This document shows positions 1,697-63,510 of a DNA stretch of 64,000 bases, in pieces (the first letter of the stretch is position 1; each line of letters opens with the position of its first letter). The position numbers and the translations under genes are program-made. A model generated the notes under the pieces. It did no database searches, was not told the DNA's origin, and saw nothing but the letters and a program-made list of their open reading frames with translations. This stretch comes from Candidatus Komeilibacteria bacterium (GTDB lineage Bacteria; Patescibacteriota; Patescibacteriia; UBA1558): the NCBI GenBank assembly GCA_048538275.1, contig JBLYPW010000001.1:299924-363923 (forward strand), read 5' to 3'.

Positions 1697-2554
1697 TTAA
1701 GGCTTGTCAAATTTTATTTTCAAAAGGCGCGGCTGGCCGACTAAGTCCTTAATAATATCAATAGTAATGCCCGGGAATAATTTAGTGACAGTCGTGCATA
1801 ATTGCTTGTTTTGTCTGGGGTCAATTTCTATGAATAAATATTGCGGTAAGGTGGCCAGCGCTTTGATTTGGACTAGTAGCTGATGATAAAGCATAAGGCC
1901 AGCCGCGCCGCCATAAAGAGCTTGGCGTGGTTCGTATTTGATAGTTGGCTCGTCCAATTGCTCGGCGGTGAGATAGGGTAAATTGGCGATGATAATGGCT
2001 TGAGATATTATTTTATGATTGATCTTCGCCAGTAAATCACTTGATATAAAATTTATATTGACTTTATGTAGTCCGGCATTTTGTTTAGCTATTTTTAGAG
2101 TTTGAGTTGATATATCAGTGGCAAAAAAATTATTGTCAGGTAGCTCTTGGGCGGCGCTTATGATAAGACAGCCGGAGCCAGTACCAATATCTATAATATT
2201 GGTTTTTTTTGGATTAATTTTTTTTAATTCATCAATAAATAATTCAGATTCCGGACGGGGGATGAGAGTATGCTTATTAACTAGAAAATCTCTACCATAG
2301 AATTCTTGCCTACCTAATAAATAAGCTAGTGGCTTGCCTTTTGCTCTTTGTTTTAGTAGGTAATAAAAAAAACAGCTCTGTAAAAAATTTAGCTGATTTT
2401 CTGTATGCGTCAGTACATAGCTGCGCGGTTTCTTGATAATTTTGCTTAAAATAAGCTCGGCATCTAAGCCATATTTTGGGCTGGTCAAATTTTTGTTGGC
2501 ATAGCGTAATGCTTTAGTTATTGTCAGAGGCATGGTCAGCTTGGTAAAGGGCAT
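1697..2554 (-). CDS. prmC: Release factor glutamine N5-methyltransferase PrmC/HemK (true start possibly at 2533)
   Basis: SAM-binding [12 protein letters not shown] motif and NLPY (NPPY-type) catalytic motif; overlaps and follows prfA as in the conserved prfA-prmC operon. Confidence 0.8.
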
Positions 2555-3575
2555 CTATTATTTCATCCAGATTGCCGTCTAGGATATTATTTAGATTATG
2601 TACAGTTAATTTTATACGATGGTCAGTGACACGATCCTGCGGCCAGTTATAGGTACGTATTTTTTCTGAGCGATCGCCGCTGCCAACTTGAGATTTGCGC
2701 GAGGCAGCTTCAGCTTGATGTTTGTCATCTTCTATTTTTTTTAATAAACGAGAACGTAGTACTTGCATTGCTTTCAGTTTATTTTGTTGTTGACTACGTT
2801 CGTCTTGACAAGAAACAACTATATTGGTGGGTAGGTGAGTAATGCGAATTGCTGAATAAGTAGTATTGACGCTTTGACCACCGTGTCCACCGGCGCAAAA
2901 GGTATCAATGCGCAAATCTTTGGGATTGATTTCTATGTCTATCTCTTCTGCCTCCGGCAAAACCGCCACAGTAGCTGCAGAGGTGTGAATACGTCCAGAT
3001 TTTTCTGTTTCGGGTACGCGTTGCACACGATGAACCCCACTTTCATATTTGAGACGACCATAAGCACCATTGCCAATAATTTCGACAATGATTTCTTTGT
3101 AGCCATTTAATTCTGTACGATTGGCAGCTACAATGTGTGTTTTCCAGCTGTGCTTTTCCGCATAGCGACTATACATGCGCCAAAGGTCAGCGGCAAATAA
3201 GGCAGATTCATCTCCTCCAGTACCGGCACGAATTTCTATAATGGCATTTTTTTTATCCATTGGATCTGATGGAATTAGCATTTGGTTAATCTCTGCTGCT
3301 AGCCTGGGTAATTCTTTGTGTAGTTTTTCCAATTCATCATTGATCATGGCTTTCATTTCTTCATCTGGTTCGGAATTGACTTGCTTTTCTAGATCACTTT
3401 GAGCTGCTTGTTTTTCAAAATAAGTAGATAGTGCAGCACTGATCTCTTTGCTTCTGCCATACTCTTGGGATAATTCTGCCAATTTTGCGCTATCATTAAC
3501 ATTGTCTGGATTTTGTAGATCAGCTTCCAGTTTCTTTATTTTTGTTTGGTATTCGGTGAGTAATTTTTTATCCAT
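2514..3575 (-). CDS. prfA: Peptide chain release factor 1
   Basis: GGQ motif ([10 protein letters not shown]), conserved RF1 core [21 protein letters not shown]; tripeptide reads PET rather than PAT/PVT. Confidence 0.9.
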
Positions 3576-3594
3576 AATTTTATTATAAAATAAA

Positions 3595-3629
3595 AAACCC
3601 TGTTGGCCAACGAGGGTTTTTTAGATAGT
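3595..3629 (-). terminator. Rho-independent terminator downstream of rpmE
   Basis: Palindrome ccctgttggccaacgaggg flanked by A-run/T-run. Confidence 0.5.
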
Positions 3630-3634
3630 AAAAG

Positions 3635-3925
3635 TTATTTTTCTTTAGCTTCTTCAGCGGCACGCTTGGCAGCTATTCTAATTTTCTTGGCTTTTTTACC
3701 TTTTCTTTCTTTAGCAACATCTGTTTGGCGAGCAATGCGTTTTTTAAATTTATCAACCCGACCAGCCGTATCTACTAGATTTTGTTTACCAGTATAGAAA
3801 GGATGACAGTTAGAACAAATTTCTACATGGATTGCTTTGATAGTAGAGCCAACAGTAAAACTATTGCCACAAGCACAAGTGACCTTAGCATTAGGATAAT
3901 ATTCTGGATGGATATCTTTTTTCAT
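3635..3925 (-). CDS. rpmE: 50S ribosomal protein L31 (Zn-ribbon form) with Lys-rich C-terminal extension
   Basis: [10 protein letters not shown]...CxC...[13 protein letters not shown]31 signature; ~30-aa K/A/E-rich tail. Confidence 0.85.
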
Positions 3926-4217
3926 AAAATAATGGTTAAATTAGATATTCGTGCAAGCGTCGCCAGTATAACAGAGGTGGGGCATAGTGTCAAGGGTTGT
4001 TTATTTAAGTAGTAAGTTTATTTAGTTTTGAGGATTGAGATTGGCCTGAGCATTGAATTATCGCTGATTAACAAAATTCAGCAGGCTCCAAAAATTTGTC
4101 AGCTATTTCCAAAAAAAAAGATTTTGATGATTTAGCATGTTCATAGTTTAACAAATTAGAGTGGTTTAGTCCACGCTATTATGTTATATTAGAGTTGTTC
4201 AATATTAGCGTCTTTCT

Positions 4218-4799
4218 ATGATAAAACGTTGTCCTTGGTGTGAGATAAATGATGAAATGATAGCTTATCATGATAAAATTTGGGGCGTGCCGGTGCGGCG
4301 CGATCGTGATATTTTTAAATTTTTTGTGCTGGATACTTTTCAAGCTGGTTTAAGCTGGAATATTATATGGCGTAAGCGGCAGGGATTTGCTCGGGCATTT
4401 GCTGATTTTGATTTTAATAAAGTGGCCCAGTTTAAGCAACGCAAAATAGAGTCAATGTTAAAAGATACCGGTATCATACGCAATCGCTTGAAAATTCAAG
4501 CTACCATTAATAATGCCCAGCGCTTTTTGGATATAAGACAAGAATTTAATACTTTTAGTCGTTATATCTGGCAATTTACCGGCGGTCAACCTAAGATAAA
4601 TAAATGGCAAAATATGAAGCTGATACCGACGTATAGTTCAGAATCTGATGCCATGAGCAGAGATTTAAAAGCGCGTGGTTTTAAATTTGTTGGTACTACC
4701 ATTTGTTATGCTTTTATGCAGGGCATAGGTATGGTAAATGATCACATTGTGAGTTGTCACCGCTATTCCGACCTTCAAGGTCTAAACCTTGAAGGTTGA
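4218..4799 (+). CDS. tag: DNA-3-methyladenine glycosylase I
   Basis: CPWC...YHDKIWGVP...QAGLSWNIIWRKR...IRNRLKI motifs typical of Tag. Confidence 0.8.
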   Translation: MIKRCPWCEINDEMIAYHDKIWGVPVRRDRDIFKFFVLDTFQAGLSWNIIWRKRQGFARAFADFDFNKVAQFKQRKIESMLKDTGIIRNRLKIQATINNAQRFLDIRQEFNTFSRYIWQFTGGQPKINKWQNMKLIPTYSSESDAMSRDLKARGFKFVGTTICYAFMQGIGMVNDHIVSCHRYSDLQGLNLEG

Positions 4800-18589: not shown

Positions 18590-20176
18590 ATGTTTGAAGA
18601 CAGACCAAAACCAGTTGTGTTGCTTATTTTAGATGGCTGGGGAGTAGCGCCAGCTTCCAAGGCCAATGCTGTGACTTTGGCGGATACCAAAAATTTAGAT
18701 AGCTATATTTTGCAGTATCCGACAGTAACCTTGCAGGCGGCAGGAGAAGCTGTGGGTTTGTCTTGGGGAGAGATGGGTAATTCTGAAGTTGGACATTTAT
18801 CTTTGGGCAGCGGTAAGATTATTTATCAAAGTTTACCTCGTATTACTCGGGCCATTTCTGATCACTCTTTTTTTACCAATGAAGGGTTTATTAATGCCAC
18901 CAAGCATGTCAAAGAAAATAACAGTGCCTTACACTTAATGGGATTACTTTCAGATGGTAGCGTACATAGTTATAATGAGCATCTTTATGCTTTGGTAGAA
19001 ATGGCCAAGGAGCAGGAAGTCAGTAATGTATTTATACATATTTTCTTAGATGGCAGAGACACGGCCTATAATGCGGGTATAAAATTTGTTAAAAAATTGG
19101 AAGATAAGCTCAAGCAAATTGGCTTGGGCAGGATTGCTACTGTATCTGGTCGATATTATGCTATGGATAGAGATAATCATTGGGAGCGTATCGCGAAAAC
19201 TTATTGGGCTATGACTGAAGGGGAGTCAGATAAGCAATATAACAATGCCACAGACGCTATTCAAGCTTCTTATGATGCGGGTGTTTATGATGAAGAATTT
19301 GTGCCAGTAGTGATTAGCGATAATAATAAACCGGTAGCTATTGTAGGCGAAAAAGACGCCATAATATTTTTTAATTATAGATCGGATAGAGCACGGCAAT
19401 TGACCAAGGCCTTTGTTTTACCCAGTTTTGATAAGTTTGATAAGCCGCGACCTTATTTAAAGGATTTATATTTTGTCACTATGACAGAATATGAGAAAGA
19501 TTTACCGGTTAAGATCGCTTTTCCTCCTATACAGGTAGAAGCGTCTTTAGCAAAAGTTATTTCTCAAGCAGGATTAAGCCAATTACATATAGCGGAAACT
19601 GAAAAATACGCCCATGTTACATTTTTTTTCAATGGGGGCAGAGAAGAAAAATTTGCAAATGAAGATAGGATTTTGATTCCATCGCCTCGTATTCCAGCCT
19701 ATAATGCGCAGCCAGAAATGAGCGCCGGTCAGGTGACTAATAAGATAGTAGAGGCGGTCAAACAGAATAAATATGATTTTATAGTGGCAAATTTTGCTAA
19801 TCCAGATATGGTGGCTCACACCGGTGATATAAAAGCTACCATCATCGCTTTACAATTTATTGATCAGTCAGTTGGTCGTATAGTAGAGGCGGTCTTGGAA
19901 CGTAATGGAGTGATATTGATAACTGCTGATCATGGTAATGCTGAAGAGTTGTTTAAATTACAGACCGGAGAAATAGACAAAGAACATTCTACTAATCCCG
20001 TGCCACTCTATATTATTGCTAATGAATTGAAGGACAAAACTATTATTCCCGGAGTTAATCCTCAAAATCTATGCCAGCAAACGCCAGTAGGTATTTTGTC
20101 CGATGTAGCGCCAACTATTTTGCATATTATGGGATTAAAAAAACCCGCTACCATGACAGGCACGAGTTTGATTTAG
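18590..20176 (+). CDS. gpmI: 2,3-bisphosphoglycerate-independent phosphoglycerate mutase (copy 2, divergent tandem paralog)
   Basis: LLILDGWG, MGNSEVGHLSLGSGK, LDGRD, TADHGN motifs; immediately downstream of copy 1. Confidence 0.85.
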   Translation: MFEDRPKPVVLLILDGWGVAPASKANAVTLADTKNLDSYILQYPTVTLQAAGEAVGLSWGEMGNSEVGHLSLGSGKIIYQSLPRITRAISDHSFFTNEGFINATKHVKENNSALHLMGLLSDGSVHSYNEHLYALVEMAKEQEVSNVFIHIFLDGRDTAYNAGIKFVKKLEDKLKQIGLGRIATVSGRYYAMDRDNHWERIAKTYWAMTEGESDKQYNNATDAIQASYDAGVYDEEFVPVVISDNNKPVAIVGEKDAIIFFNYRSDRARQLTKAFVLPSFDKFDKPRPYLKDLYFVTMTEYEKDLPVKIAFPPIQVEASLAKVISQAGLSQLHIAETEKYAHVTFFFNGGREEKFANEDRILIPSPRIPAYNAQPEMSAGQVTNKIVEAVKQNKYDFIVANFANPDMVAHTGDIKATIIALQFIDQSVGRIVEAVLERNGVILITADHGNAEELFKLQTGEIDKEHSTNPVPLYIIANELKDKTIIPGVNPQNLCQQTPVGILSDVAPTILHIMGLKKPATMTGTSLI

Positions 20177-20191
20177 TTTTTTTAAATTTTA

Positions 20192-20611
20192 TTATAATAG
20201 CCAAAGCATGAGGCTGAAGACAATACCCCATAAAGTACCAGCCATTACTTCTTTGATAGTGTGACCTAAGCGTTCATTTAGTAAAGGATATTTATATTCT
20301 TGTTTATCTGGTAATTCTTTAATCAATTTATTGAGAATATTACCATGGTAACCTAATTGCCAGCGAGTAGTAAAGGCATCCCAAATAATAACCATGGCAA
20401 AGCTTAAGGCAATAGCAAAACTCAATGAGTTTAGCCCAGCCGTTAGGTAGCTGATAGTAGCGATACTAGCTGCGAAAGCTGAGTGGGATGAGGGCATGCC
20501 GCCATTACTTAATAAATGATTCCAGCTGAAATTACCATGTCGGCTTTCAAAGAATAATTTTAAAAGCTGGGTGCTGGCTAATACTATAAGGGGGTAGAGA
20601 AACAAAGGCAT
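20192..20611 (-). CDS. Divergent PAP2-family (DUF212/YuiD-like) membrane phosphatase-like protein
   Basis: GGMPSSHSA motif typical of acid phosphatase/vanadium-haloperoxidase-related family. Confidence 0.6.
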   Translation of the reverse strand: MPLFLYPLIVLASTQLLKLFFESRHGNFSWNHLLSNGGMPSSHSAFAASIATISYLTAGLNSLSFAIALSFAMVIIWDAFTTRWQLGYHGNILNKLIKELPDKQEYKYPLLNERLGHTIKEVMAGTLWGIVFSLMLWLL

Positions 20612-20630
20612 AAATAATTAATAAAGGTTA

Positions 20631-21431
20631 ATGCATTTATTATACATTATAATCAGCTCTATAATCCAGAGCTTAACAGAATTTATTCCAGTTTCCAGTT
20701 CTGGGCACTTGGTTATTTGGCATAGTGTGTGGTCAGCGCCACTGAATAGTTTGCAGCTGGATATCGTTTTACATCTCGGTTCTTTACTGGCTTTAATAGT
20801 TTATTTTCGTAAAGATATCATTCGGTTGTTTATTGCCTGGCTATATACTTGGCGCAAGCAGTGGACAGCGACGGGTAAATTGGCATGGTGGTTAATTTTG
20901 TCTACTGTACCAGCCGCTATGGTTGGCGTTTTGGCGGGACAGTGGGTGACAGATAATTTACGAAGTGATAGTACGGTGATAGCTATGCTTATTATTGTTG
21001 CTTTGTTGTTTTTATTGACTGAGAAAATAGCTCAGGGCAAACGTGATTTACAGCAATTAAATTGGCGCGATGCTTTATTGATTGGTATTGCTCAGTGTTT
21101 AGCATTTGTGCCTGGTACTTCTCGTAGCGGTATCACCATCGTGGCTGCGATGTTGTTAAAAATAAAAAGAGCGGAAGCCGCTCGCTATTCTTTTTTATTA
21201 GCAATTCCAACCTTGCTAGGAGCTAGTTTGAGTGGTGTAAGCATGATGGTTGACCAGGGGATAGATAGAGCTAGTATGATTATGGCAGGTATTGGATTGG
21301 TCATAACTTTTGTTTTATCTTGGGGGGTTATAAGATTTTTCTTACGCTATTTGCGTCAACATAGCCTCGTTCCTTTTGCTTTATATCGTATTGTTTTAGC
21401 GCTGGTACTTTGGCTAATATTATATTATTGA
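20631..21431 (+). CDS. uppP: Undecaprenyl-diphosphatase (BacA/UppP)
   Basis: LTEFIPVSSSGHL and PGTSRSGITI motifs. Confidence 0.85.
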   Translation: MHLLYIIISSIIQSLTEFIPVSSSGHLVIWHSVWSAPLNSLQLDIVLHLGSLLALIVYFRKDIIRLFIAWLYTWRKQWTATGKLAWWLILSTVPAAMVGVLAGQWVTDNLRSDSTVIAMLIIVALLFLLTEKIAQGKRDLQQLNWRDALLIGIAQCLAFVPGTSRSGITIVAAMLLKIKRAEAARYSFLLAIPTLLGASLSGVSMMVDQGIDRASMIMAGIGLVITFVLSWGVIRFFLRYLRQHSLVPFALYRIVLALVLWLILYY

Positions 21432-22085
21432 TAGTGTGATAGGTAGGGTACGAAAGGCTTGATAGCTATTATTGTAATCCGACATCATTTCCGATAATTT
21501 TAATTTGCGAGGACTACCAAAAATTTGTACTACTACCACCTGTTGTTGTCCCTGCAGTTTACCCATGATCACGGCTAGGCCAATTTCACGGTATTTGTCA
21601 TTTAAGATATTAGCACGGTGTCCGCTAGAATCCATCCATGCCTTCATTACATCTTTGTTGGTTGTAAAACCAGCTGCTAAATTTTCGCCGATAATCTGAT
21701 AGTCATAGCCAACATCATCTATCCAGCTACTGAAAAAACTGCCATCGGGAGCATTATGAGAAAAAAAATTATTCGCTATTAAATCAGTCGCCTTAGCTTG
21801 TGCGGCGGCGTTTAATTTATCGTTCACAGTCAATGGTTGTAATTGCTTGATGTCACGTATCTCATTGGTTAGCATAATCAAGTCATTGGCAGCTATACTG
21901 CTATCCAATAAGCTGGGTGATTGAGAGGTGGCACTTGGTACAAAAAAAAGTAAGCAACCAGAGCCTACTATTATTAATACAGCTATAGACAACCAAAAAA
22001 TAGCTTGGTGTTTATTTATTGACATTTGGACCCTCGTTTTTGTTTTTGTGGCTAATTTTGGCCACTTATATATACAGTATATCAT
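21420..22085 (-). CDS. CAP/SCP (PR-1-like, YkwD-type) domain protein with N-terminal TM anchor (start possibly at 22025)
   Basis: ATDLIANNFFSHN...GENLAAGF...AWMDSSGHRANIL CAP-domain motifs. Confidence 0.65.
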   Translation of the reverse strand: MIYCIYKWPKLATKTKTRVQMSINKHQAIFWLSIAVLIIVGSGCLLFFVPSATSQSPSLLDSSIAANDLIMLTNEIRDIKQLQPLTVNDKLNAAAQAKATDLIANNFFSHNAPDGSFFSSWIDDVGYDYQIIGENLAAGFTTNKDVMKAWMDSSGHRANILNDKYREIGLAVIMGKLQGQQQVVVVQIFGSPRKLKLSEMMSDYNNSYQAFRTLPITLSII

Positions 22086-22308
22086 ATTCTTTGGTAAAAG
22101 TCAAGGTTAATAAATATCATGCCAGATTTTAGAATCAGTCGTTGAGGATGATTGATTATCTAATCATTTAAACTATTGATTGTCAAGGCAAATAAAATAG
22201 GCTCAATCATTTGATGGAGCCTTTTGCCAACCTGTTTGGTGACCATGCATCCGATGCGGTTGTCCCGTAGATGCATTATTCCTTAGCAGGAATAAGGTCA
22301 ATGCTTCG

Positions 22309-22611
22309 CTACAGCCTGGTGATTAAAAAGATATCATAGCCTTGTGCCTTGATTTCTTCGAGACTATGCTCGCAGTATCCAGACAAGCGACCACGTACCT
22401 TGATTACCAGAGCTTCATCGTAGCCTTTACAGACATGACGTTCTGTAACAGGCTCAATGCCAAGCAACCTAACCGTGTCGTGACCGACAAAATTTTCGGC
22501 GACTTGGGCGAAAGCCTTGGCCTGGTCCAGGTCAATACGCCTCATCTGCCAATTGCCACATTCCAGCAACATGGTAGTAGAGAGTATGACCTTGCGGTTA
22601 ATGGTTTCCAT
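22309..22611 (-). CDS. Small DUF1874 (STIV B116-like) family protein, tentative
   Basis: 100-aa ORF in a locally GC-rich segment; pattern VILSTTMLL...VGHDTV..LLG....YDEALVIKV...LS.EEI resembles DUF1874 recalled from memory; overlapping + strand ORF judged a shadow. Confidence 0.4.
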   Translation of the reverse strand: METINRKVILSTTMLLECGNWQMRRIDLDQAKAFAQVAENFVGHDTVRLLGIEPVTERHVCKGYDEALVIKVRGRLSGYCEHSLEEIKAQGYDIFLITRL

Positions 22612-22876
22612 GTTTGAACTTCACTGGCTAAGCGGCTGCGCCTGGAGCCCTATTAGCCTGTATGGTAACCGTTTTTGGAAACCTAACCTTAAAAAGAACG
22701 ATAGCGTACCTTAGCATAGGATATTTTTTTTGTCAAGCCCCTGTACTTGATGACCACCTTTCGGGCACTTTCATATATTTTTAGTTGATTTGTAGACTTG
22801 TGAGGTGGGGTTTGTATTAATGTTACAGATTTTTTTAACATTCTTGATATTAATAGTTTATTATCTACATATTAAA

Positions 22877-22903
22877 TTGACAATTGTTAGGGGGGGGTAT
22901 AAT
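22877..22903 (+). promoter_or_regulatory. Sigma70-like promoter (TTGACA-15 nt-TATAAT) with G8 homopolymer tract in the spacer
   Basis: TTGACA at 22877-22882, TATAAT at 22898-22903, spacer contains gggggggg (22890-22897); 80 bp upstream of repeat-protein gene. Confidence 0.45.
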
Positions 22904-22985
22904 TAAGATGAAGCTAGATGTTTATTTTTACTATAATATAATTCAGTCTAGTCTAAATCTATTATTTAACACTTAATTAAATTCT

Positions 22986-24734
22986 ATGAGTATTGAAAAA
23001 AATGGTGGTTTTAAGTCTCCAGAATTTAGCTCAACACCTTCAATAGAACAAAAAGAGCAAGCAAAAGAAAAACTTTTACAAGAAGCATTGCAAGAGAGCT
23101 ATGAGTTAAATTTAAATGCGGGTCATATTGTACATGCAGAAAAAATTAGCGAAGACAGAGGAATAAGTTTAAACTCAGAAATATTCCAGATAGCGTATGA
23201 TGCACAAATAAATAAGGGTGATATATATACCGCTACTAGGGTAGCTAAGTTAGCCGAAGGCAAGGGATTGAAATTAACCCCCAAAGCTGAAAGTTTGCAA
23301 TTAGGCTATGAAAAAGCAATGGAAATGGGAAAAAAATACGATATTGAAAAAATAAAACAGTTTGCCCAAGAAAAAGGCATTAAACTAACAGTAAATAAGG
23401 ATGCTATCCAAAAATGGTGCGATTATGCGCTTGAGAACGGTGATAGTGGCATATTAAAAGAAATAAAAAAAATTGCCAAAAAAGAAAGAATAGAATTAGA
23501 AGTAAAAAAAGAAGTGTTGCAAAAGACTTATGATAAAAAACTTAATGAGTTAGAAGATTTGATCTCATTAACAGAAATTGAACAATTTGCTAAACAGAAT
23601 GACATTGATTTGGAAGTTAATAAAAAGATTCTGCAACAAGGGCTTGAAAATTATATAGAGTATGCAGCACCTAGAGAACCATATGAAAACTTGTTAGCTG
23701 ATGTTAAAAAAATTATAAATTTTGCCACTAAGAAGGGTGTTAAGATAAATATAGATGATATAGATGACAAAAAGGTACAAGAACTATATGAGAAAGGGTT
23801 AATAAATGGGGACAGTAGAATGATCAAAGGGATGAAAAATCTTGCCAGTGAGAAAGGCATAGATTTGGATATTCAAAAGTTAGATTTACAGGAATTATAC
23901 GATAAGTTTTTTACAGATGGGGAAATATATATAGCGCAACAGATAAAAGAAATAGGTGACGAAAATGGTTTAGAAGTTAAAGTCCCGAGTAAAGAAAAAA
24001 TACAAAAAAATTATGATATACTGTTAGCTTCGGGTAATCAATATGGAGCACTTAAAATACAACAATTTAGTGGTGATAATGGAATAGCGATTGAAATAAA
24101 AAAGGATATGTTACAAAAGGCGTATGAGACAATTTGTAATGGTAACATGGAGAGTGTGAACCTTAATTATATGTCCGACCTTGAAGAAATGGCTAAAGAT
24201 AATGGATATGAGATTGAAAACGCTAAAGAGCTAATTGAAAAAACTTATATTGAAGTTATTCATAATTTGAATATGGGCCATGCTGGTGCCAAAAGGGAGG
24301 GGCTAATAAAAAAACTAAAGGAACTAGGCTCTGATCTAACCTATGAAGATGTTATCAAGATGGATTATCTTGATTATTTAAAAGTACCAGAAGAGCAAAG
24401 ATTGAGCATACAAAAGACAATGGAAATAGATGGTGCGCCCATAAGGGTTAGCTTTTATGGTCAGAAGCAAGAAGCTCCGGTACATGGTAAGTTTATCATC
24501 GGCACAAGTACAGATAATGGTTTAGAGTTTGTTTTCGATAGTACATTAGGAGAACATGGGGATATTGGCAACAAATATAATTTAGAAGTGATTGGTGGTG
24601 GTTGGTTGGAAATAGATGAAATAAACAAGAAAATAAAGATTCACAGAAATAGTGAGGATTATGGTTATGAACCGAGGTCTATATCTAAAAGAGTGATAGC
24701 TGATACTTTCTCTGATTACGAGATTATAGTGTAG
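22986..24734 (+). CDS. Tandem-repeat protein (~9 helical repeats of ~38-40 aa) with distinct C-terminal beta-rich domain; no signal peptide; strongly AT-rich
   Basis: Repeating I..FA...GI.L.V.K..LQ..Y.....NG pattern through residues ~100-420; composition ~30% GC versus ~40% in neighbours. Confidence 0.6.
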   Translation: MSIEKNGGFKSPEFSSTPSIEQKEQAKEKLLQEALQESYELNLNAGHIVHAEKISEDRGISLNSEIFQIAYDAQINKGDIYTATRVAKLAEGKGLKLTPKAESLQLGYEKAMEMGKKYDIEKIKQFAQEKGIKLTVNKDAIQKWCDYALENGDSGILKEIKKIAKKERIELEVKKEVLQKTYDKKLNELEDLISLTEIEQFAKQNDIDLEVNKKILQQGLENYIEYAAPREPYENLLADVKKIINFATKKGVKINIDDIDDKKVQELYEKGLINGDSRMIKGMKNLASEKGIDLDIQKLDLQELYDKFFTDGEIYIAQQIKEIGDENGLEVKVPSKEKIQKNYDILLASGNQYGALKIQQFSGDNGIAIEIKKDMLQKAYETICNGNMESVNLNYMSDLEEMAKDNGYEIENAKELIEKTYIEVIHNLNMGHAGAKREGLIKKLKELGSDLTYEDVIKMDYLDYLKVPEEQRLSIQKTMEIDGAPIRVSFYGQKQEAPVHGKFIIGTSTDNGLEFVFDSTLGEHGDIGNKYNLEVIGGGWLEIDEINKKIKIHRNSEDYGYEPRSISKRVIADTFSDYEIIV

Positions 24735-25000
24735 AATTAGTTGATAATTTTTAGCACATCAGTTCAGACACTCTAATTTAAATTTATTATCATCAAACAT
24801 AAATTTAATATGTTTGGTTAATTTCACAATTTCTAATTCTAATATAATTTGTGAAAACAGGGGTGTCCGAAAGGTATCTCATCTTTTGCAGCCCATTATC
24901 AGGAATAATTATACAAACAAATATTTTGTTCACTCGGGTATAATAAGTTTTGTAGTTAGTTGGTTTTTAGTTTATAATAAAAAAAGAATAATTATTTTTT

Positions 25001-25633
25001 ATGGCTTACCAAAATATTGATCAGCTAATAGACTACCTCAAGGGCAAAAGTGTTTTGCATTCACCCCGTCTGGAGCAAGCCTTACGTATAGTTGATAGAG
25101 GTGATTTTGTGCGTCCGGAAACAAGGCCTTGGGCCTATTGGGATGAGCCTTTGTCTATTGGTTATGGCCAAACAATATCACAGCCGGCAGTAGTAGTATT
25201 TATGTTAGAATTATTGGCTCCGCAAATGGGGGAGAATGTTTTAGACGTGGGTTGTGGTTCTGGATGGCAAACGGCTTTATTGGCCTATTTGGTTGGTCGA
25301 GAAGGTAAGGTGACTGGTTTAGAAATAAAGCCACCTTTAGTACAACAAGCCAAGGTTAATTTAGTACCTTATGAATTTAGTAATATTGAAATTTTATTAG
25401 CTGATGGTCACGAGGGGTTTAGCTTGGGCGCGCCGTATGACAAAATTATTATAGCGGCGGCTACGGAAGAGTTGCCAGAGGTTTTGTGGCAACAATTGAA
25501 ACCGGATGGTGTGATGGTATATCCTGAGGGTAAAGGTGCCCAATCTATTGTCCGTTTGCGGAAAAATCTGGATGGCACTAGAGAACGTTCTAGTTGGCCA
25601 GGATATTTATTTGTACCATTTGTGCGACAATGA
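25001..25633 (+). CDS. pcm: Protein-L-isoaspartate O-methyltransferase
   Basis: LDVGCGSGWQTALLAYLVG SAM motif and PIMT-family architecture. Confidence 0.8.
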   Translation: MAYQNIDQLIDYLKGKSVLHSPRLEQALRIVDRGDFVRPETRPWAYWDEPLSIGYGQTISQPAVVVFMLELLAPQMGENVLDVGCGSGWQTALLAYLVGREGKVTGLEIKPPLVQQAKVNLVPYEFSNIEILLADGHEGFSLGAPYDKIIIAAATEELPEVLWQQLKPDGVMVYPEGKGAQSIVRLRKNLDGTRERSSWPGYLFVPFVRQ

Positions 25634-26721
25634 AGATAAAGAATAAAAATTTATATGCGGTTATATTAGCCGGCGGTATTGGTAGCCGACTATGGCCTTT
25701 ATCACGTCGCTTGCGACCTAAGCAAGTGCAGTCAATTTTGTCTGGGCCTACATTGTTGCAACAGACTTTTAAGCTGTTACGACGGGGGTTACCACCTAGT
25801 CATATATATTTGGTGACTACTAGAGATCAGCTTTCTATTATTCGTAAGCAACTACCTGAATTAGCTGCTAAAAATTTTATTGTAGAACCACAACGTCGGC
25901 ACACGGCAGCAGCTATTGCCTTGGCCAATAAGGTGATTTCTCTTCAAAATCCACAAGCTATTATCGTGACTACCAATACTGATGGCTATATTCCGCAGGC
26001 AGATAAATATTGGCAAGCCATTGACATGGCCACTCGGGCGGTGATGCGGAATACTGATTGTGTAGTTGCGATTGGCATCAGACCGACTTATCCGGAAACC
26101 GGCTATGGCTATATACATTTGTCCAATAAGCTATTTGGCAATTTGTATCAGGTAAAAAGCTTTAAAGAAAAACCATCATTATCACGAGCTAAATATTTTG
26201 TTTCTCGATCAGATTATTTATGGAATAGCGGAATCTATATTTTCAAGGCAGTGACTATGCAATCCCAGTTGGCTAAGTATTTGCCTCTGCATGACAAAGT
26301 ATTATCAGCTTGGCAGGCTCATACCAATAGCAAAAATCGTTGGGCCAAGTTATCCTACTATTATCATCGTCTCCCTATGATTTCTATTGACGTGGGCATT
26401 ATAGAAAAACAAAAAAATTTATTGTCACTGAGTGCTGATTTTATTTGGCAAGACATTGGACATTGGCGAGCGGTCAGAGATATTATTGCCAGTTTGCCGG
26501 ATGAGCTAACCGATAAGAGCGGTGGTAAGGTTTTGAACTTGACTGGTAAGAATAATTTGGTAAAAAATTTGTCCGATAAATTAGTGGTGACAATTGATTT
26601 GCAAGATATGATCGTGGTAAATATGGATGACGTGGTATTGGTTTGTCCTAGTAGTAGTGCGCAAAAGATAAAACAAGTAGTGAGTAGACTAGAGAAAAAT
26701 GGTTGGGAAGAATATTTGTAG
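25630..26721 (+). CDS. Mannose-1-phosphate guanylyltransferase-like nucleotidyltransferase (start chosen at MKIKNK, 4-bp overlap with pcm)
   Basis: YAVILAGGIGSRLWPLSR...PKQ nucleotidyltransferase N-terminus. Confidence 0.7.
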   Translation: MKIKNKNLYAVILAGGIGSRLWPLSRRLRPKQVQSILSGPTLLQQTFKLLRRGLPPSHIYLVTTRDQLSIIRKQLPELAAKNFIVEPQRRHTAAAIALANKVISLQNPQAIIVTTNTDGYIPQADKYWQAIDMATRAVMRNTDCVVAIGIRPTYPETGYGYIHLSNKLFGNLYQVKSFKEKPSLSRAKYFVSRSDYLWNSGIYIFKAVTMQSQLAKYLPLHDKVLSAWQAHTNSKNRWAKLSYYYHRLPMISIDVGIIEKQKNLLSLSADFIWQDIGHWRAVRDIIASLPDELTDKSGGKVLNLTGKNNLVKNLSDKLVVTIDLQDMIVVNMDDVVLVCPSSSAQKIKQVVSRLEKNGWEEYL

Positions 26722-26757
26722 CTTGCCTAAGACGTTTAAATTTGGCATAATGGGTGA

Positions 26758-27786
26758 GTGAGTAGTTATCAGTTTAACATGATTGAAGTCTATCAAAAAT
26801 ATAGCCTGAAACGGCGTTTTATTTTTAGCATCATTATTATAATTTTAGTCATTGGTGCTATTTTTTATTTATCTGGTGATGCCATTGATGATAATGTTAT
26901 TATTGTGACTATTCCTGCACAAGCTTCCTTGCCTGAGGTAACGGATTTATTGGTTGGTGAGAATATTATTAGCCATCCCGTATTATTTGGTTGGTATTTA
27001 CGCATCAGTGGACAAGCTGAGCAAATAAAAGCTGGTCAACATAAATTGTCTGCTGCTATGAGTTGGTCAGAGATGGTACATGAATTAACAATAACCACGT
27101 CTGCCAAGGAGAAGCAAATTACCATTATTGAAGGCTGGACAAATAATCAAATTGGTCAGTATTTAGTGAACAGTAATCTAGTTAATTATGATGAATGGCA
27201 ACAGGCTATGGCAGCTGCTTATGATTATAATTGGTTACCCAAGCGGACAGATGATTATTTACAAGGTTATTTATTTCCAGATACTTACCGTGTATATTTT
27301 GATAGCAGTGCTGAGCAGATAGTAAATAAGCTGTTGGCCAATTTTGCCAATAAAGTTGACACTGATTTACAAGCAGAGATTGAAGCACGGGGTTATAGCT
27401 TAAGACAAGTCATTACCTTAGCTTCTATTGTGGAAAGGGAAGTAAGAGCAGATCAGGACAGGGCATTGGTAGCGGATATTTTTTGGCGCCGCTTGGCCGA
27501 TAATTATCCCTTACAGTCAGATGCTACCGTGACTTATATTACACAAAAGAAACATCCACAGGCTACTTTTGCAGATACTAAAATTGATTCTCCTTATAAT
27601 ACTTATAAATATGCTGGTTTACCTCCCGGGCCAATAAGCAACCCGTCCTTATCGGCAATTAAGGCGGTGATTTATCCGCAAGCCAATGATTATTATTTCT
27701 TTTTAACTACCAACGATGACGGACGTGTCATTTATAGCCGTACCTATGAGGAACATTTACGTAATAAAGCTAAATATTTGGATTAA
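26758..27786 (+). CDS. mltG: Endolytic murein transglycosylase MltG (YceG family)
   Basis: N-terminal TM, YceG-like core with C-terminal YYFFLTTNDDGRVIYSRTYEEH. Confidence 0.75.
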   Translation: MSSYQFNMIEVYQKYSLKRRFIFSIIIIILVIGAIFYLSGDAIDDNVIIVTIPAQASLPEVTDLLVGENIISHPVLFGWYLRISGQAEQIKAGQHKLSAAMSWSEMVHELTITTSAKEKQITIIEGWTNNQIGQYLVNSNLVNYDEWQQAMAAAYDYNWLPKRTDDYLQGYLFPDTYRVYFDSSAEQIVNKLLANFANKVDTDLQAEIEARGYSLRQVITLASIVEREVRADQDRALVADIFWRRLADNYPLQSDATVTYITQKKHPQATFADTKIDSPYNTYKYAGLPPGPISNPSLSAIKAVIYPQANDYYFFLTTNDDGRVIYSRTYEEHLRNKAKYLD

Positions 27787-31926: not shown

Positions 31927-34068
31927 TTATAGAGGAATGACGAATAGGGTATGAGGTGTTATTAGGAAGGCGCGTTGCTGATCTTCTTGAATGCTCATAG
32001 CTTGTAGGTCAATGAATTTGTCGGAATGGTATTGTTTGATCAATTTGCCATTTTTATCCAGTACTATTAAACGATTATTCTCTGGATCCAGTAAATAAAT
32101 ATTAGCACTTTCGGGAGAGGTAAATAGTTGGCTGGGATTATTAAGCGGCGGGTATATGTTGATAGCTGGGAAATCTATTTGTCTGCCAGCGCTGAGTTTG
32201 ATAATTTTATTATTTTGTAAAATATAAATATTACCGTCAATGGCCAGATCCTTGGCATCAGTAAGATCAATATTGTCTTTTAGCCATAAATCGGGCGATT
32301 GAAAAGCATTGCCGACTAGGCGATGACGATAAACTTGATCGGTTTCATTATCTAATACATATAAGCGATTGAAAAAGCTAGTGGCTGATGAGACATTTTT
32401 TAATCCAGCACTATATGATATGGGCATGGGTTGCAGAGCATCATTGTTTACTTGGAAAATATTATTATTTTGATCAAAAATAATTATGCTATCATCCGGG
32501 GCTATGGTAGTAAATTTAATTTTTTGCATATTGGCAGGATAGGGAGTGGTGCTGAATTCTTTTTGTGTAAAATTATAATTTACCCAATCATTGCCATTGG
32601 TAAAAAGATAAATATTATCTTCTTGAGCCATAACTTTTTGCCAACTTATTGTTTGGTTTAGTTGATCACTACTTATGATCGCTACTGGCTCTGCTATATC
32701 CATAATATTCCAAATACGCTCGGTCAAAATATTAAGCTGTTGTCGCCAACCATCAATAGCATTTTGGTAATTTTTATCTGTCACAGGAAATTGATCGCGT
32801 AAAATAATCAGATCGTCTAGTAAAGTTTGAGCGCGTAGACGGTCACCATATATTAAAGCAGCTTCTATATTTTCACTTTTGTTGGTAAATTCATTATTGA
32901 TAGTAGTGAATTGTTCTTCCGTTAATCCCTGCGGGCCTTTAGATAAGAGGATAATAACTATTATTATGATAGCCGCAGCAATTAAGCCAGTGGCGACCAA
33001 CTTTTGTTTTAGGTTTATATGTTTTAGCCATTGCCAGCTCCAAGCACGACGGCGATGAATATTATCTGGATGGATAAGATTGACTATGATATTTTTTAGC
33101 TGCAATGCTATCCAGAGAAGTCCTATGCCTAGATTACGTAGTAACCACCATATTTTTTTTCCTAGCCAATGAAAAAATCTGATTAATAAAGGCATTATAT
33201 TGGATTGGCTGAAAGCGTCTTTCAAATTACTTAAAGTAGAGGTAAATGCTTGCCAACTGGATGGCACGGTCATAATTTGTTGGGTTTGTTTTTGCGTTAC
33301 TATTAACTGGTCTAAAGAAGCTTTGGATTTAACAGTAGTGGCATTATCATGCGGCCTGTTGATTGGCTCCATCGGTGTAATGTCTGGCGTAGACCTGTAT
33401 TCTTCTTCCGCTACGCTATTTTTTATAATAACACTTAAAAAAGAAACATGATCAGAAACCTCTGCCACCATATTTTGAAATTGGGCGGCAGCGGAGAGCG
33501 CCGGTATGGTGGTGATTATTTTTCGTACTTTGTCTAAAGATAAATAGTCAAGGAGAGAATCATTGGTTAACAAAAAAGCAAATCCTGGTTGTAATTGGCC
33601 AGTGATCACATTGGCAAATATTTTTACTGGATTAATAGGTCCATTGTCCTTACCGACAACATCTATAGCTTTTAACGGATGTAGTAAATAACCTTGCCAT
33701 TGACCGAGTAGAGAGATGTTTATAATATTATCTTTAATATTGCCTATGCCAATATTAAGATTTTGAAGAATTTTTTTATTGTGGGGCAAGTTTTGTGGTA
33801 GCCACTGATTTATTTCATTTAAGGAGTATTCTAAAATTTTAGTAGAATCTTCTAATACTGAGCTATAATAGAAATGGTGAATTTTTTCTAAAAATGCTCC
33901 AATAAATTTATCATAATCATTTTCCGGATTATTGATATTGATTAAAACAAAAAGACAGCCATTTTTAGCTAGCTGAGCAGGATCATTTTCCACGTATATA
34001 TCGCCGATGGAATCGGCGTGTACAGGGTCTTGTATAAAAATTTTAGCTGTTTGGATATTGGCTGCCAT
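31927..34068 (-). CDS. Membrane protein: N-terminal cytoplasmic domain, 2 TM helices, C-terminal beta-propeller-like extracytoplasmic repeat domain
   Basis: 713-aa ORF; TM segments in the middle; C-terminal repeated IYLLDPENNRLIVLDKNG / LYVLDNETDQVY / IYILQNNKII blade-like motifs. Confidence 0.5.
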   Translation of the reverse strand: MAANIQTAKIFIQDPVHADSIGDIYVENDPAQLAKNGCLFVLININNPENDYDKFIGAFLEKIHHFYYSSVLEDSTKILEYSLNEINQWLPQNLPHNKKILQNLNIGIGNIKDNIINISLLGQWQGYLLHPLKAIDVVGKDNGPINPVKIFANVITGQLQPGFAFLLTNDSLLDYLSLDKVRKIITTIPALSAAAQFQNMVAEVSDHVSFLSVIIKNSVAEEEYRSTPDITPMEPINRPHDNATTVKSKASLDQLIVTQKQTQQIMTVPSSWQAFTSTLSNLKDAFSQSNIMPLLIRFFHWLGKKIWWLLRNLGIGLLWIALQLKNIIVNLIHPDNIHRRRAWSWQWLKHINLKQKLVATGLIAAAIIIIVIILLSKGPQGLTEEQFTTINNEFTNKSENIEAALIYGDRLRAQTLLDDLIILRDQFPVTDKNYQNAIDGWRQQLNILTERIWNIMDIAEPVAIISSDQLNQTISWQKVMAQEDNIYLFTNGNDWVNYNFTQKEFSTTPYPANMQKIKFTTIAPDDSIIIFDQNNNIFQVNNDALQPMPISYSAGLKNVSSATSFFNRLYVLDNETDQVYRHRLVGNAFQSPDLWLKDNIDLTDAKDLAIDGNIYILQNNKIIKLSAGRQIDFPAINIYPPLNNPSQLFTSPESANIYLLDPENNRLIVLDKNGKLIKQYHSDKFIDLQAMSIQEDQQRAFLITPHTLFVIPL

Positions 34069-45476: not shown

Positions 45477-46592
45477 ATGCAGAAGGATATTTTTTTTATT
45501 GAAGCGGCCGCTATTCTTATCGGCACCACCATTGGCGCCGGTATTTTAGCTATCCCTTATGTTATAGCGGAAGCCGGTTTTTTAAGCGGTTTAGTGATGG
45601 TGATAGTAGTGACACTCGTGATGTTGGTATTAAATTTAATGGTTGGGCAGCTGGCATTGGGTACCAAAGACTTGCATCAGCTACCGGGCTATGCGCGTAA
45701 GTATTTGGGTCGTACCGGAGAACGGCTAATGTTTGTATTGATGGTAGCCTCTATTTATGGAGCTTTGCTGGCATTTGTTATTGGTGAGGGTAGAGTATTA
45801 GCAGATTTGTTTGGTGGTAGCCCTATGTTAAGTAGTTTAATCTTTTTGGCGGTGGGCGCCATTATTTTATATTTTGGTCTGAGTATTATCAGGCGTTTAG
45901 AATTATTATTGACACTGGTCATTTTTTTTATAATATTATTGCTTTTTTGGTGGAGCAGGCCATTTATTGCCTGGGATAATTTAAAGGTTTTTTCTTGGCA
46001 AAATATATTATTGCCCTATGGAGCGGTATTCTTTGCCGGCATGGGCTTTTCTTCTATCGCCCAGATGCGAGAAGTTTTAATTGGTAGGGAAAAGTTATTG
46101 CGCAAAGCTATTGTGGTGGGTACTTTTGCACCAGCTATCATTTATGTCATTTTTTCTTTATTGGTAGTAGGTGTTAGCGGTAGCGCTACCAGCGAAGTCG
46201 CCACTATTAATTTGGGCCACATTATCGGACCGCAGATGATAATCTTTGGTAATATTTTTGCTTTTGTTACCATGGCCACCACTTTTCTTGCTTTAGGCTT
46301 GGCTTTGAAAAAAGCTTTTATCCAAGATTTGCGGCGTTCAGCTAATGTAGCTTGGTTATTAACCTGTTCTGTACCGGCAGTTGCTTTATTATTAGGTTTG
46401 AATAGTTTTGCTAATATTGTCAGTATTGTGGGGGCAGTAGCCGGCGGCTTACAAGGCGTGCTCATTGCATTGACCTGGTATTATATGCATCAGATGGAGC
46501 GTAATCCAGAATATCGTTTACCACATACTGTTTGGCTTTTATTGCCGGTGTTAATAGTCTTATTGGCGGGCTTGTTCAGCGTTTGGTGGTGA
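45477..46592 (+). CDS. Amino-acid permease-like transporter (Trp/Tyr permease-like fold)
   Basis: 11-TM-like 371-aa protein, N-terminal IGTTIGAGILAIPY motif. Confidence 0.45.
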   Translation: MQKDIFFIEAAAILIGTTIGAGILAIPYVIAEAGFLSGLVMVIVVTLVMLVLNLMVGQLALGTKDLHQLPGYARKYLGRTGERLMFVLMVASIYGALLAFVIGEGRVLADLFGGSPMLSSLIFLAVGAIILYFGLSIIRRLELLLTLVIFFIILLLFWWSRPFIAWDNLKVFSWQNILLPYGAVFFAGMGFSSIAQMREVLIGREKLLRKAIVVGTFAPAIIYVIFSLLVVGVSGSATSEVATINLGHIIGPQMIIFGNIFAFVTMATTFLALGLALKKAFIQDLRRSANVAWLLTCSVPAVALLLGLNSFANIVSIVGAVAGGLQGVLIALTWYYMHQMERNPEYRLPHTVWLLLPVLIVLLAGLFSVWW

Positions 46593-61587: not shown

Positions 61588-63510
61588 ATGGAAAATCCAG
61601 ACTGGCTAAAAAATAAATATAATGATTTACACAATACAAAAGAAGTAAAGTCAGCTGTTCGAGCAGAAGAGCAGTTTACTGGTGAAAAAGTACCACAGAA
61701 TCCAGAACAACAGATTCAAAGCTATTTAGATCGTTTAGAAAAGTTAGTCCTTGATCCAGATAAAAAGCAATCAAGGAAAATGATGGGTAAAGAGCAAAGA
61801 CCAAGAGCCCTATCCTTACTTAGAGAAATGGTAATGAATGAATATATTCGTCCTAATAAAGAAAAACTAGCAGAAGGAGCAGCCAGAGTAGAAGAAAGAG
61901 CAGCTAGGAACTTAGGAATGGATATTGAATATGGAGAAGAACAATTAGAACAAAGAGGTGAAATAGCTATAGAAGATTTAGAAAAATCACTAGATAATTG
62001 GATTTCTTATCTTTCAGATGCTAATGAACCATATCCAACTTGGTTTAGATATTATGCTTTTAGAAATATATTAAAGCTAGGAGATTATGATAAAGACAAA
62101 AAAGAGTTTACCAAGAGAACTAAAGGTAGTACTAAACTATTCCCCGAAATAGATAGGGGAGCCTTAGCATATATACAGCAAAATATAGAAGCTTCTAAAG
62201 ATCCTAAAATACTTGCCAAGCTTCAAGAAGCACAAAAACAAGCAGCTAATGGTGATGTTCCAGAAGATCAGCTTATCACCAAAGAAAAGGTACAAAACTT
62301 TTCTAATCTTTCCTTTGCTAAGCAATATGCAGAAGGAATATCTAAAAATGGTGAAATAACCCCAGAGCTTAGAGCCATAACAGAAGGTAAATGGGTTAAG
62401 TATCAACAAGGTACAGAACCAACAGCTCTTTGGTCATCTCTACAAAACAAAGGCACAGCTTGGTGTACAAAAGGTTTTGCTACAGCCAAAACTCAACTTG
62501 AAGGTGGAGATTTTTATGTATATTACACATTAGATAAAAAAGGCAGTCCTACTATTCCTAGAATAGCTATAAGAATGCAAGGAGAGAATGTAGGAGAAGC
62601 CAGAGGAGTAGAAGACAGTGATCAGAATATGGAAGGTAATATGATAGCTATTGCCGAAGAAAAGCTAAGTACACTTCCAGGAGCTGAAAGCTATAAAGAA
62701 AAAACAGCTGACATGAAAATGCTTACTAGTATATATAACAGACATAAGCAAGGAGAAGAACTTATAAAAGAAGACCTTATCTTTTTATATGAAATAGATA
62801 AACCTATTCAAGGCTTTGGTTATAAAAAAGATCCGAGAATAGAAGAAATACGAGACAAAAGAGATGTAACCAAAGATGCATCAATTGTATTTGAATGCAC
62901 TCCAGATCAAATAGCTAAAAATATTAATGAAGTAAATGAAAATACAGTAGCATATATAGGGCAATGGAATATACCAGCTTTTCAAGTAATTAAAAACCAT
63001 CCCAATATTATTTACTTTTATGAATCTTTCCCAGATAAAAAGATATTCATGCAAACTCTAGAAACAGATCCTAGTATAGATTCACCTGATACAGCCAAAC
63101 AGTCTCTTAAAGATAAGAACATCTATCTTTCAGATTGGGGAAAGGATATTTTAGAAAAAACAGAGTTTAGTAAAGAAAAACAAGAATATGATTTAGTGAG
63201 ATTTACAGTAGAGCAATTAGGATTTCCAAATGGTGCTACTACTGATGAAATATATAATAAAGCTCAAGAGCTCGGACTTGAATTATGTCCAGCTGAAATT
63301 GGACCTCAATTAAGATTACAAAGTACTAGTAAGGAATGGATGCTTATTGCTATGAAACAGATTATAGACCGTGATGGCGCTCCGTCGCTGTTCGATCTGC
63401 GTGATGATGGTTATCAGCTGGTACTGAGCAGCGACGGTGCTTGGTCTGACGGCAGGTGGTTTTCGGACGGTAGGTTTGTGTTTCATTACCGCCCCAGTAG
63501 CAAAGCGTAG
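61588..63510 (+). CDS. Orphan 640-aa hypothetical protein; AT-rich body with abrupt GC-rich 3' end
   Basis: Long uninterrupted ORF, charged/low-complexity N-terminus, no signal peptide; composition shift at ~63360. Confidence 0.5.
   Translation: MENPDWLKNKYNDLHNTKEVKSAVRAEEQFTGEKVPQNPEQQIQSYLDRLEKLVLDPDKKQSRKMMGKEQRPRALSLLREMVMNEYIRPNKEKLAEGAARVEERAARNLGMDIEYGEEQLEQRGEIAIEDLEKSLDNWISYLSDANEPYPTWFRYYAFRNILKLGDYDKDKKEFTKRTKGSTKLFPEIDRGALAYIQQNIEASKDPKILAKLQEAQKQAANGDVPEDQLITKEKVQNFSNLSFAKQYAEGISKNGEITPELRAITEGKWVKYQQGTEPTALWSSLQNKGTAWCTKGFATAKTQLEGGDFYVYYTLDKKGSPTIPRIAIRMQGENVGEARGVEDSDQNMEGNMIAIAEEKLSTLPGAESYKEKTADMKMLTSIYNRHKQGEELIKEDLIFLYEIDKPIQGFGYKKDPRIEEIRDKRDVTKDASIVFECTPDQIAKNINEVNENTVAYIGQWNIPAFQVIKNHPNIIYFYESFPDKKIFMQTLETDPSIDSPDTAKQSLKDKNIYLSDWGKDILEKTEFSKEKQEYDLVRFTVEQLGFPNGATTDEIYNKAQELGLELCPAEIGPQLRLQSTSKEWMLIAMKQIIDRDGAPSLFDLRDDGYQLVLSSDGAWSDGRWFSDGRFVFHYRPSSKA

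Follow-up and report, generated by a model that had tools for sequence, protein, structure and literature searches.

In the current analysis, an open reading frame (ORF) at positions 22986-24734 on the forward strand of a 64,000-nucleotide (nt) stretch of the Candidatus Komeilibacteria contig JBLYPW010000001.1, the whole of which is referred to here as the window, has been found to encode a protein of 582 amino acids (aa) that joins an array of helical repeats resembling pentatricopeptide repeats (PPR) to a C-terminal domain of the PHPT1 family. Based on sequence comparisons and structural models, the protein is most likely a solenoid-targeted phosphohistidine (P-N bond) phosphatase, a reading to which we give somewhat better than even chances. 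It builds on the identity and fold of the domain, the conservation of its catalytic set, the repeat architecture and the distribution of the family, all of which are observed; the phosphatase activity and the targeting role are predicted. The domain family is already known, and it is its combination with a PPR-like array that is a new architecture. The features of the gene are the following.

22986..24734, forward strand: coding sequence, with an ATG start, 582 aa and a stop codon.
22986..23168, forward strand: N-terminal region, residues 1-61, with a disordered hydrophilic start (1-18), a long helix (20-45) and a short helix (48-58).
23169..24338, forward strand: array of ten helix-turn-helix repeats, residues 62-451, in units of 35-48 aa, mostly 37-38 aa.
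24246..24296, forward strand: junction motif Y421-x4-H426-x5-H432-x4-R437 in the last repeat, with Y453 further on, recognised by its conservation.
24399..24731, forward strand: PHPT1-like (Janus/Ocnus, PF05005) domain, residues about 472-582, recognised by Pfam, profile and model matches.

The product of this ORF is identical to ACKKL5_01695, a 'hypothetical protein' encoded on a 487-kb contig of a metagenome-assembled genome (MAG) of Candidatus Komeilibacteria, a lineage within the Parcubacteria/Patescibacteria group of the candidate phyla radiation (CPR). Its start codon is supported since two homologues (47-50% identity) open with the same MSIEK, and on these comparisons the ORF is a real gene.

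An earlier reading of the sequence alone had set apart a distinct beta-rich C-terminal domain, which is borne out at about residues 472-582, and had placed it in no recognised family. The domain passes the gathering cut-off of the Janus/Ocnus (PHPT1) family PF05005, which is set at 23, reaching 27.7 bits when the whole protein is searched and 30.8 bits when the domain is searched by itself. Of 51 family representatives, 50 match PF05005 individually (best E 4.8e-21). These 51 C-terminal domains, gathered from an exhaustive HMMER search and sharing about 30% overall identity, were combined into a profile that matches human PHPT1 in the PDB (2ai6, 2nmm, 2hw4) at E 2-3e-9, the best being 2.2e-9 and the next PDB match standing at E 0.06. 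A search of the PDB with the single sequence matches PHPT1 weakly (E 0.35). The AlphaFold2 model of the domain has a predicted confidence (pLDDT) of 95 and the PHPT1 alpha/beta fold, and its structural matches are PHPT1 structures only. On the profile and model evidence, the C-terminal domain is a member of the Janus/Ocnus phosphohistidine phosphatase family with a predicted PHPT1 fold.

The conserved core of the domain is made up of G501-K502, H524 (codon 24555-24557), G537-G538-G539-W540, S556, G560 and P563-R564. An alignment of hidden Markov models (HMM) with human PHPT1 places H524 at His53, G537-539 at Gly75-77, S556 at Ser94 and G560 at Gly98. The printed alignment begins at PHPT1 residue 51, and K502 lies in a strand that is putatively equivalent to that of Lys21 ('GKFIIG' here and 'FKYVLI' in PHPT1). 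The catalytic site of PHPT1 comprises Lys21, His53, Ala54, Arg78, Ser94 and Ala96 (PMC4817053); His53, which serves as the general base activating water, is important for activity, and so is His102 (PMC11277029). Among the 51 representatives H524 is kept in 49, K502 in 47, S556 in 50 and the GGG loop in 49-51, a pattern across the alignment which indicates purifying selection on the catalytic His, Lys and Ser of this domain and on its Gly loop.

PHPT1 itself, the 14-kDa animal enzyme of PF05005 (PDB 2ai6, 2hw4, 2nmm), is a stand-alone protein of 125 aa, whereas the domain described here ends a 582-aa protein behind an array, shares about 20% identity with PHPT1, has an extra N-terminal beta-hairpin and the conserved junction motif, and is hosted by prokaryotes, namely CPR bacteria and DPANN archaea. 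SixA is a bacterial phosphohistidine phosphatase of the histidine-phosphatase superfamily that removes phosphate from the phospho-His of signalling proteins through a phospho-enzyme intermediate on the His of its RHG motif, and its fold is unrelated to that of PHPT1. The 582-aa protein and SixA would thus share the presumed chemistry in a prokaryotic setting, whereas fold and mechanism are unrelated, and the Pfam family His_Phos is not matched by the 582-aa protein.

The region preceding this domain is a repeat array. Local alignment of its two halves (residues 62-255 and 256-451) scores 172, to be compared with 45.6 +/- 7.5 in 300 shuffles (z 16.8), and a lag of 37 is the sole positive one between 30 and 45 in the autocorrelation. 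An HMM built from repeat-only proteins of other organisms finds ten matches in the 582-aa protein with 102 bits, while shuffled sequences reach at most 7.8 bits (n=200). In the AlphaFold2 model, for which the alignment held just three sequences, ten hairpins of helix(13)-turn-helix(13)-loop(8) span residues 64-446 with pLDDT of about 80-93 across most of the array. They come after helices 20-45 and 48-58, which form in the model a degenerate N-terminal cap repeat; the repeat HMM weakly matches residues 33-56, and residues 1-18 have pLDDT below 50. We are confident that the array, as modelled, is a helical solenoid of 10-11 diverged repeats. The solenoid of about 38-aa helical repeats proposed from the sequence alone is thus borne out by the repeat statistics and the modelled hairpins; its count of about nine units of 38-40 aa has to be corrected to 10-11 units, mostly of 37-38 aa.

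The consensus of 260 repeats collected from the family is EILQKAYEKLLEEGDIDDAKEIEEYAKEKGIELE. Its most conserved position is a Gln (94% of the 260 repeats), followed by Ala25 (87%), Leu32, Ile30 and Gly29, and variability is highest at the end of helix A and in the turn. At the DNA level the repeat units of the gene are 65-75% identical over 28-37 nt, and no tandem DNA repeat is reported in the gene by Tandem Repeats Finder.

No repeat family of Pfam is matched by the 582-aa protein even at E<=10, in agreement with the earlier statement that TPR, Sel1 and ankyrin repeats are not recognisable. A single-repeat profile was further compared by hhalign with consensus repeats of PPR, TPR, ankyrin, Sel1, HEAT and TALE. 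The cPPR consensus is weakly matched (P 2e-4, probability 48%) and two other PPR consensus sequences reach P 2e-3 to 4e-3, whereas the TPR, ankyrin, Sel1, HEAT and TALE controls give P 0.08-0.5. Identity with any of these last five families is unsupported. TPR, Sel1-like and ankyrin proteins share with the array the presumed role of a helical-repeat binding scaffold and a similar unit length; they differ in having no Pfam matches here, in hhalign values at chance level (P 0.08-0.3) and in their absence from the significant Foldseek matches.

The structural comparison points to PPR proteins. All 38 matches of the full model in the PDB at E<=1e-3 by Foldseek are PPR proteins, including designed PPRs, PPR10 and PPR proteins of mitoribosomes and plastids, many of them RNA-bound, the best being 5i9f (E 7e-9). 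The TM-scores of these matches are low (0.13-0.23), as is expected because the superhelical pitch differs. The modelled array appears to have the fold of a PPR-like alpha-solenoid, PPR proteins being its best structural match. The register with the PPR consensus also agrees, with a G-to-G spacing of 16 in both and 'AKEKGIEL' opposite 'MKEKGIKP', so that a helix-B/loop motif 'A.EKGI.L' stands here for 'M.EKGI.P' in PPR. PPR sequence models, which describe a 35-aa motif, are unmatched by the array with its unit of 37-38 aa; one distant repeat-only relative matches PPR_2 at E 0.074. PRORP, PPR-DYW, PPR-SMR and PPR-TGM proteins likewise place a solenoid of two-helix hairpins N-terminal to a small catalytic domain. 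Such combinations of PPR with enzymes are common in eukaryotes, and prokaryotes usually lack PPR proteins (PMC4029402).

With a PHPT1-family domain at its C-terminus, the protein is better described as a putative enzyme with a targeting array than as the pure protein-binding scaffold proposed earlier. The PHPT1-type C-terminal 110 or so residues are predicted to hydrolyse the P-N bond of phosphohistidine, possibly also that of phospholysine. H524 would act as the general base activating water, with no phospho-enzyme intermediate, as in the animal enzyme, while K502, the hydroxyl of S556 and the backbone of the GGG loop would hold the phosphoryl group. The 10-11 PPR-like repeats would form an elongated solenoid, a putative targeting module binding a macromolecular partner, by which the phosphatase would be restricted to one or few phospho-substrates; the variable positions and the variable number of repeats would tune the partner of the array. 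The repeats are far less conserved than the C-terminal module, as would suit an adaptable binding array joined to an enzyme that stays constant. The substrate would most simply be a phosphohistidine protein of the cell itself, and the site of action the cytoplasm.

The hydropathy profile also points to the cytoplasm. No signal peptide or membrane segment is found by hydropathy, the maximum over 19-residue Kyte-Doolittle windows being 0.56 and the first 40 residues being hydrophilic, which upholds the earlier view on the missing signal peptide. The protein is probably soluble and cytoplasmic.

The likeness to PPR proteins raises a different possibility, in which the array binds single-stranded RNA and guides the P-N hydrolase either to a phosphoprotein bound to RNA or to a nucleotidyl or phosphoramidate intermediate on RNA-processing enzymes, the PPR-enzyme fusions named above being the precedent. 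The Foldseek matches, the shared register and the position aligning with PPR residue 5, which by a register set by inspection is the 94%-conserved Gln, are all in line with RNA binding. The same Gln speaks against it as well, since a candidate specificity position that is nearly invariant leaves no PPR-type combinatorial code. The array is moreover net acidic (-10), its repeats are missed by the Pfam PPR models, and we know of no RNA-linked substrate of PHPT1-type enzymes. An RNA-guided enzyme is on balance an unlikely reading.

The family to which the protein belongs is rare. A word-index search of 5.8 billion proteins returned three full-length proteins only, and 96 proteins at E<=1e-3 came out of the exhaustive HMMER scan, which covered 1.84 billion representatives. 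By a local re-analysis, about 60 of the 96 have the PHPT1-like domain, roughly 35-40 of them behind 1-11 repeats and about 20 as stand-alone proteins of roughly 110-130 aa, and about 30 are repeat-only. Most members are nameless, and the existing names are all 'hypothetical' or an evidently transferred label. Repeat-fused members with a taxon label come from Candidatus Komeilibacteria (two), Falkowbacteria, Saccharibacteria and unclassified 'bacterium' MAGs and, among archaea, from the DPANN lineages Pacearchaeota and Woesearchaeota. The combination of array and PHPT1 domain thus amounts to a few dozen sequence clusters, found among the named members only in ultra-small bacteria and archaea; taxon labels exist for a minority of the members, so that the CPR/DPANN restriction rests on few labels. 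A protein initially taken as a stand-alone short form (P0004) was rejected, its reading frame being open to the contig end and the protein hence a truncated fragment. No paper has been found in the literature that describes a PPR-like array with a PHPT1 domain, the junction motif or the CPR/DPANN setting, nor one that mentions prokaryotic PHPT1 members.

The number of repeats varies between relatives from 1 to 11, and within one 90%-identity cluster two members of 632 and 666 aa differ by exactly one 34-aa repeat. The MAG USPA_maxbin.021 encodes two paralogues (loci L004, 17-2017, and L006, 10-1989; proteins P0005 and P0100) with recently duplicated, near-identical repeats. Given these duplications and the difference of one repeat, the number of repeats appears from the sequences to be evolving now in some lineages, unlike that of the gene in the window. 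Directly downstream of the paralogue in L006 lies a gene (2016-4499) for an 827-aa protein with a different but similar array of about 38-aa repeats, 'IEIKEEFNVPEEIVQQAAKQGMINLLS', whose C-terminal region of about 450 aa has no significant Pfam match. Since related arrays occur alone and one precedes a different C-terminal region, the comparison suggests a modular repeat array that is combined with other domains as well.

A stand-alone PHPT1-like gene of 113 aa has been identified in a Candidatus Solibacter MAG (L008, 6001-6342). It shares 4 nt with the end of a hemC/hemD-like fusion gene that comes after a hemA-like gene, these identities being read from the translations. The PHPT1-like gene is a possible operon member with tetrapyrrole synthesis genes.

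The sequence-only reading had further considered the gene as horizontally acquired, with a GC content of about 30%, below that of the flanking genes. The GC content is 32.5% rather than about 30%, and it is indeed the lowest of the 58 ORFs of the window, the other 57 averaging 39.4% (z -2.3). Most of the deficit is carried by the second codon position (25.0% as against 36.0%, z -3.4) because the protein is rich in Lys, Glu, Ile, Leu, Asp and Asn (K 12%, E 11%, I 11%), while the GC content of third positions (GC3), 26.6% as against 34.2%, deviates with a z of only -1.4. In a Karlin-type measure of synonymous codon bias relative to the rest of the window, the gene ranks 36th of the 58 ORFs and 8th of the 26 genes of at least 300 codons. 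The low GC content stems mainly from the Lys/Glu/Ile-rich composition and the codon usage is unremarkable; it is therefore no evidence of foreign origin, and recent horizontal acquisition is rejected as unsupported.

A phage or plasmid origin is likewise rejected, as tblastn searches of phages (50,697 records) and plasmids (72,556 records) gave no match and no relatives of the 582-aa protein were found in IMG/VR. Homologues are in short rare, and the named ones come from CPR relatives. The sole PHROG match is phrog_6147 (function unassigned; E 6.7e-6), which covers 29 residues of one repeat (residues 241-269, nt 23706-23792), and the helix-loop motif 'A.KKG[IV].[IL]' may occur in phage proteins too.

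The regions flanking the gene hold two further candidate features.

22877..22903, forward strand: candidate promoter, with TTGACA at 22877-22882, a 15-nt spacer and TATAAT at 22898-22903, read from the sequence.
24860..24880, forward strand: terminator-like hairpin followed by a T-rich tail, found by consensus scan only.

The candidate promoter is a perfect -35/-10 pair located 83 nt upstream of the start codon and is one of two such pairs in the 64 kb; it is missed by the consensus promoter scan, which needs a spacer of 16-18 nt. Its spacer contains a run of eight G (22890-22897) that is the longest G/C homopolymer of the window, all others being 6 or shorter, and that is the sole contingency-like feature at the locus. 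Two extra G would give the optimal spacing of 17 nt, which makes the tract a candidate slipped-strand expression switch. Neither the promoter nor the G-tract recurs upstream of the homologues in L001 and L002. As for the phase variation suggested earlier, it is unlikely to proceed through the repeats, the units being too diverged at the DNA level; repeat recombination was rejected as its mechanism on these grounds and on the lack of a tandem DNA repeat. The other perfect TTGACA...TATAAT pair (45909-45934, forward strand) has a 14-nt spacer with a run of eight T, lies inside the ORF 45477-46592 and is probably due to chance.

These observations bear on the earlier proposal of a host-directed effector, considered here in a form in which the protein would leave the cell by non-classical export, erase the histidine phosphorylation of two-component or phosphorelay systems of a host and be switched by the promoter G-tract. 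All repeat-fused members with a name belong to CPR bacteria or DPANN archaea, both largely episymbiotic; paralogues with recent repeat duplication occur in one MAG, repeat number is variable, there is no synteny between loci, and the suboptimal spacing around the G-tract fits a switch. PHPT1 can also dephosphorylate bacterial CheA in vitro (PMC11277029), a finding that counts for the targeted phosphatase as well. The proposal is nevertheless quite improbable, as the protein has no signal peptide or membrane anchor, no secretion genes are found among the neighbours of the gene, the codon usage is typical with no sign of recent acquisition, phages, plasmids and viral contigs hold no relatives, the G-tract is not shared by the homologous loci and the restriction to CPR and DPANN depends on the few labels mentioned. 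A bolder version, according to which the repeat-fused PHPT1 proteins are an episymbiont-specific weapon or tool whose programmable PPR-like array delivers the P-N hydrolase to histidine-kinase or phosphorelay proteins of the host or to an RNA-bound complex, switched by slippage in the G-tract, is a long shot.

Several points weigh against a targeted phosphatase. Arg78 of human PHPT1 aligns with W540 (W in 38 of the 51 representatives) and His102 with R564 (R in 47 of the 51); both residues are outside the family definition of Pfam and bear on the mechanism. The equivalence of K502 with Lys21 comes from the strand pattern and conservation, not from the alignment. Two of the 51 representatives have no catalytic His, and no conserved gene neighbourhood suggesting a substrate is seen in the window or in L001, L002 and L004-L008. 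With Trp in place of Arg78 and Arg in place of His102, the predicted active site is related but not identical to that of human PHPT1. The two representatives without the catalytic His are P0018 and P0025 (Candidatus Pacearchaeota, 590 aa), where it is replaced by Cys and Val, respectively, and P0025 is also without the Lys and the Ser. Both are likely, by their sequences, to be pseudo-enzymes retaining the repeat array, and with them non-catalytic roles exist in the family.

At least 95% of 21 repeat-fused representatives carry the junction motif (with Y453), which the stand-alone homologues of about 115 aa lack. The motif may enlarge or reshape the active site and might thereby make up for the lost equivalents of Arg78 and His102. 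These replacements, the loss of the catalytic His in two relatives and a remodelled site at the junction would also suit a non-catalytic adaptor, with the PHPT1-like domain as a phosphate- or phosphoprotein-binding or structural module of a scaffold; 92-100% of the representatives, sharing about 30% identity, retain the His, the Lys, the Ser and the GGG loop, as a functioning active site would, and we consider the adaptor improbable and the targeted phosphatase the best account.

The genes surrounding the ORF are housekeeping genes on both sides, as had been stated earlier. Upstream are encoded iPGM, a PAP2-like DUF212 protein, UppP/BacA and a CAP-domain protein, and downstream PCMT (25001-25633), a mannose-1-phosphate guanylyltransferase-like protein, MltG/YceG and CorA. 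The 266-nt gap between the gene and the PCMT gene holds, besides the terminator-like hairpin, a TATAAT-like site. A role in a defence system was rejected, PADLOC having no match for the 582-aa protein or its two upstream neighbours. No Rfam match at E<=1 is found within 20000-27000, so that a non-coding RNA in the flanks was rejected as well, and no tRNA occurs within 15 kb of the gene.

The real compositional outlier of the window is an adjoining ORF of 100 aa (22309-22611, reverse strand), with a GC content of 47.9%, GC3 of 54.5% and the highest codon-bias score in the window (0.627). Pfam gives it a sub-threshold match to the STIV_B116-like family (PF08960, E 0.0056), PHROG and PADLOC give none, and it may be a mobile-element remnant. 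Among the long genes the codon usage is most deviant in the ORFs 61588-63510 (forward strand, 640 aa), which has GC3 of 0.209 and a strong AT skew, and 31927-34068 (reverse strand, 713 aa). Neither has a Pfam match at E<=0.001, and the two are further lineage-specific proteins in the window.

Phosphohistidine signalling is central in prokaryotes, and the bacterial phosphohistidine phosphatases known to us are all of other folds. PHPT1 is treated as an animal enzyme in reviews (PMC11277029, PMC4817053). The current analysis reveals that CPR bacteria and DPANN archaea have a PHPT1-type domain whose catalytic set is intact, and that other bacteria have the domain in small stand-alone proteins; among the ultra-small lineages, it stands behind an expandable array that is structurally closest to PPR proteins. 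Should the activity be absent, the protein would be of modest interest, as a rare repeat protein specific to its lineage. Should it serve episymbionts against their hosts, a biological role would be known for the first time for a prokaryotic PHPT1-type phosphatase, and prokaryotes would have a functional PPR-like targeting array of their own, likewise a first. If the array does serve for targeting, the family would provide a natural modular, repeat-addressed protein phosphatase, a handle on the role of histidine phosphorylation in organisms with minimal signalling repertoires and a clue to the prokaryotic ancestry of PHPT1.

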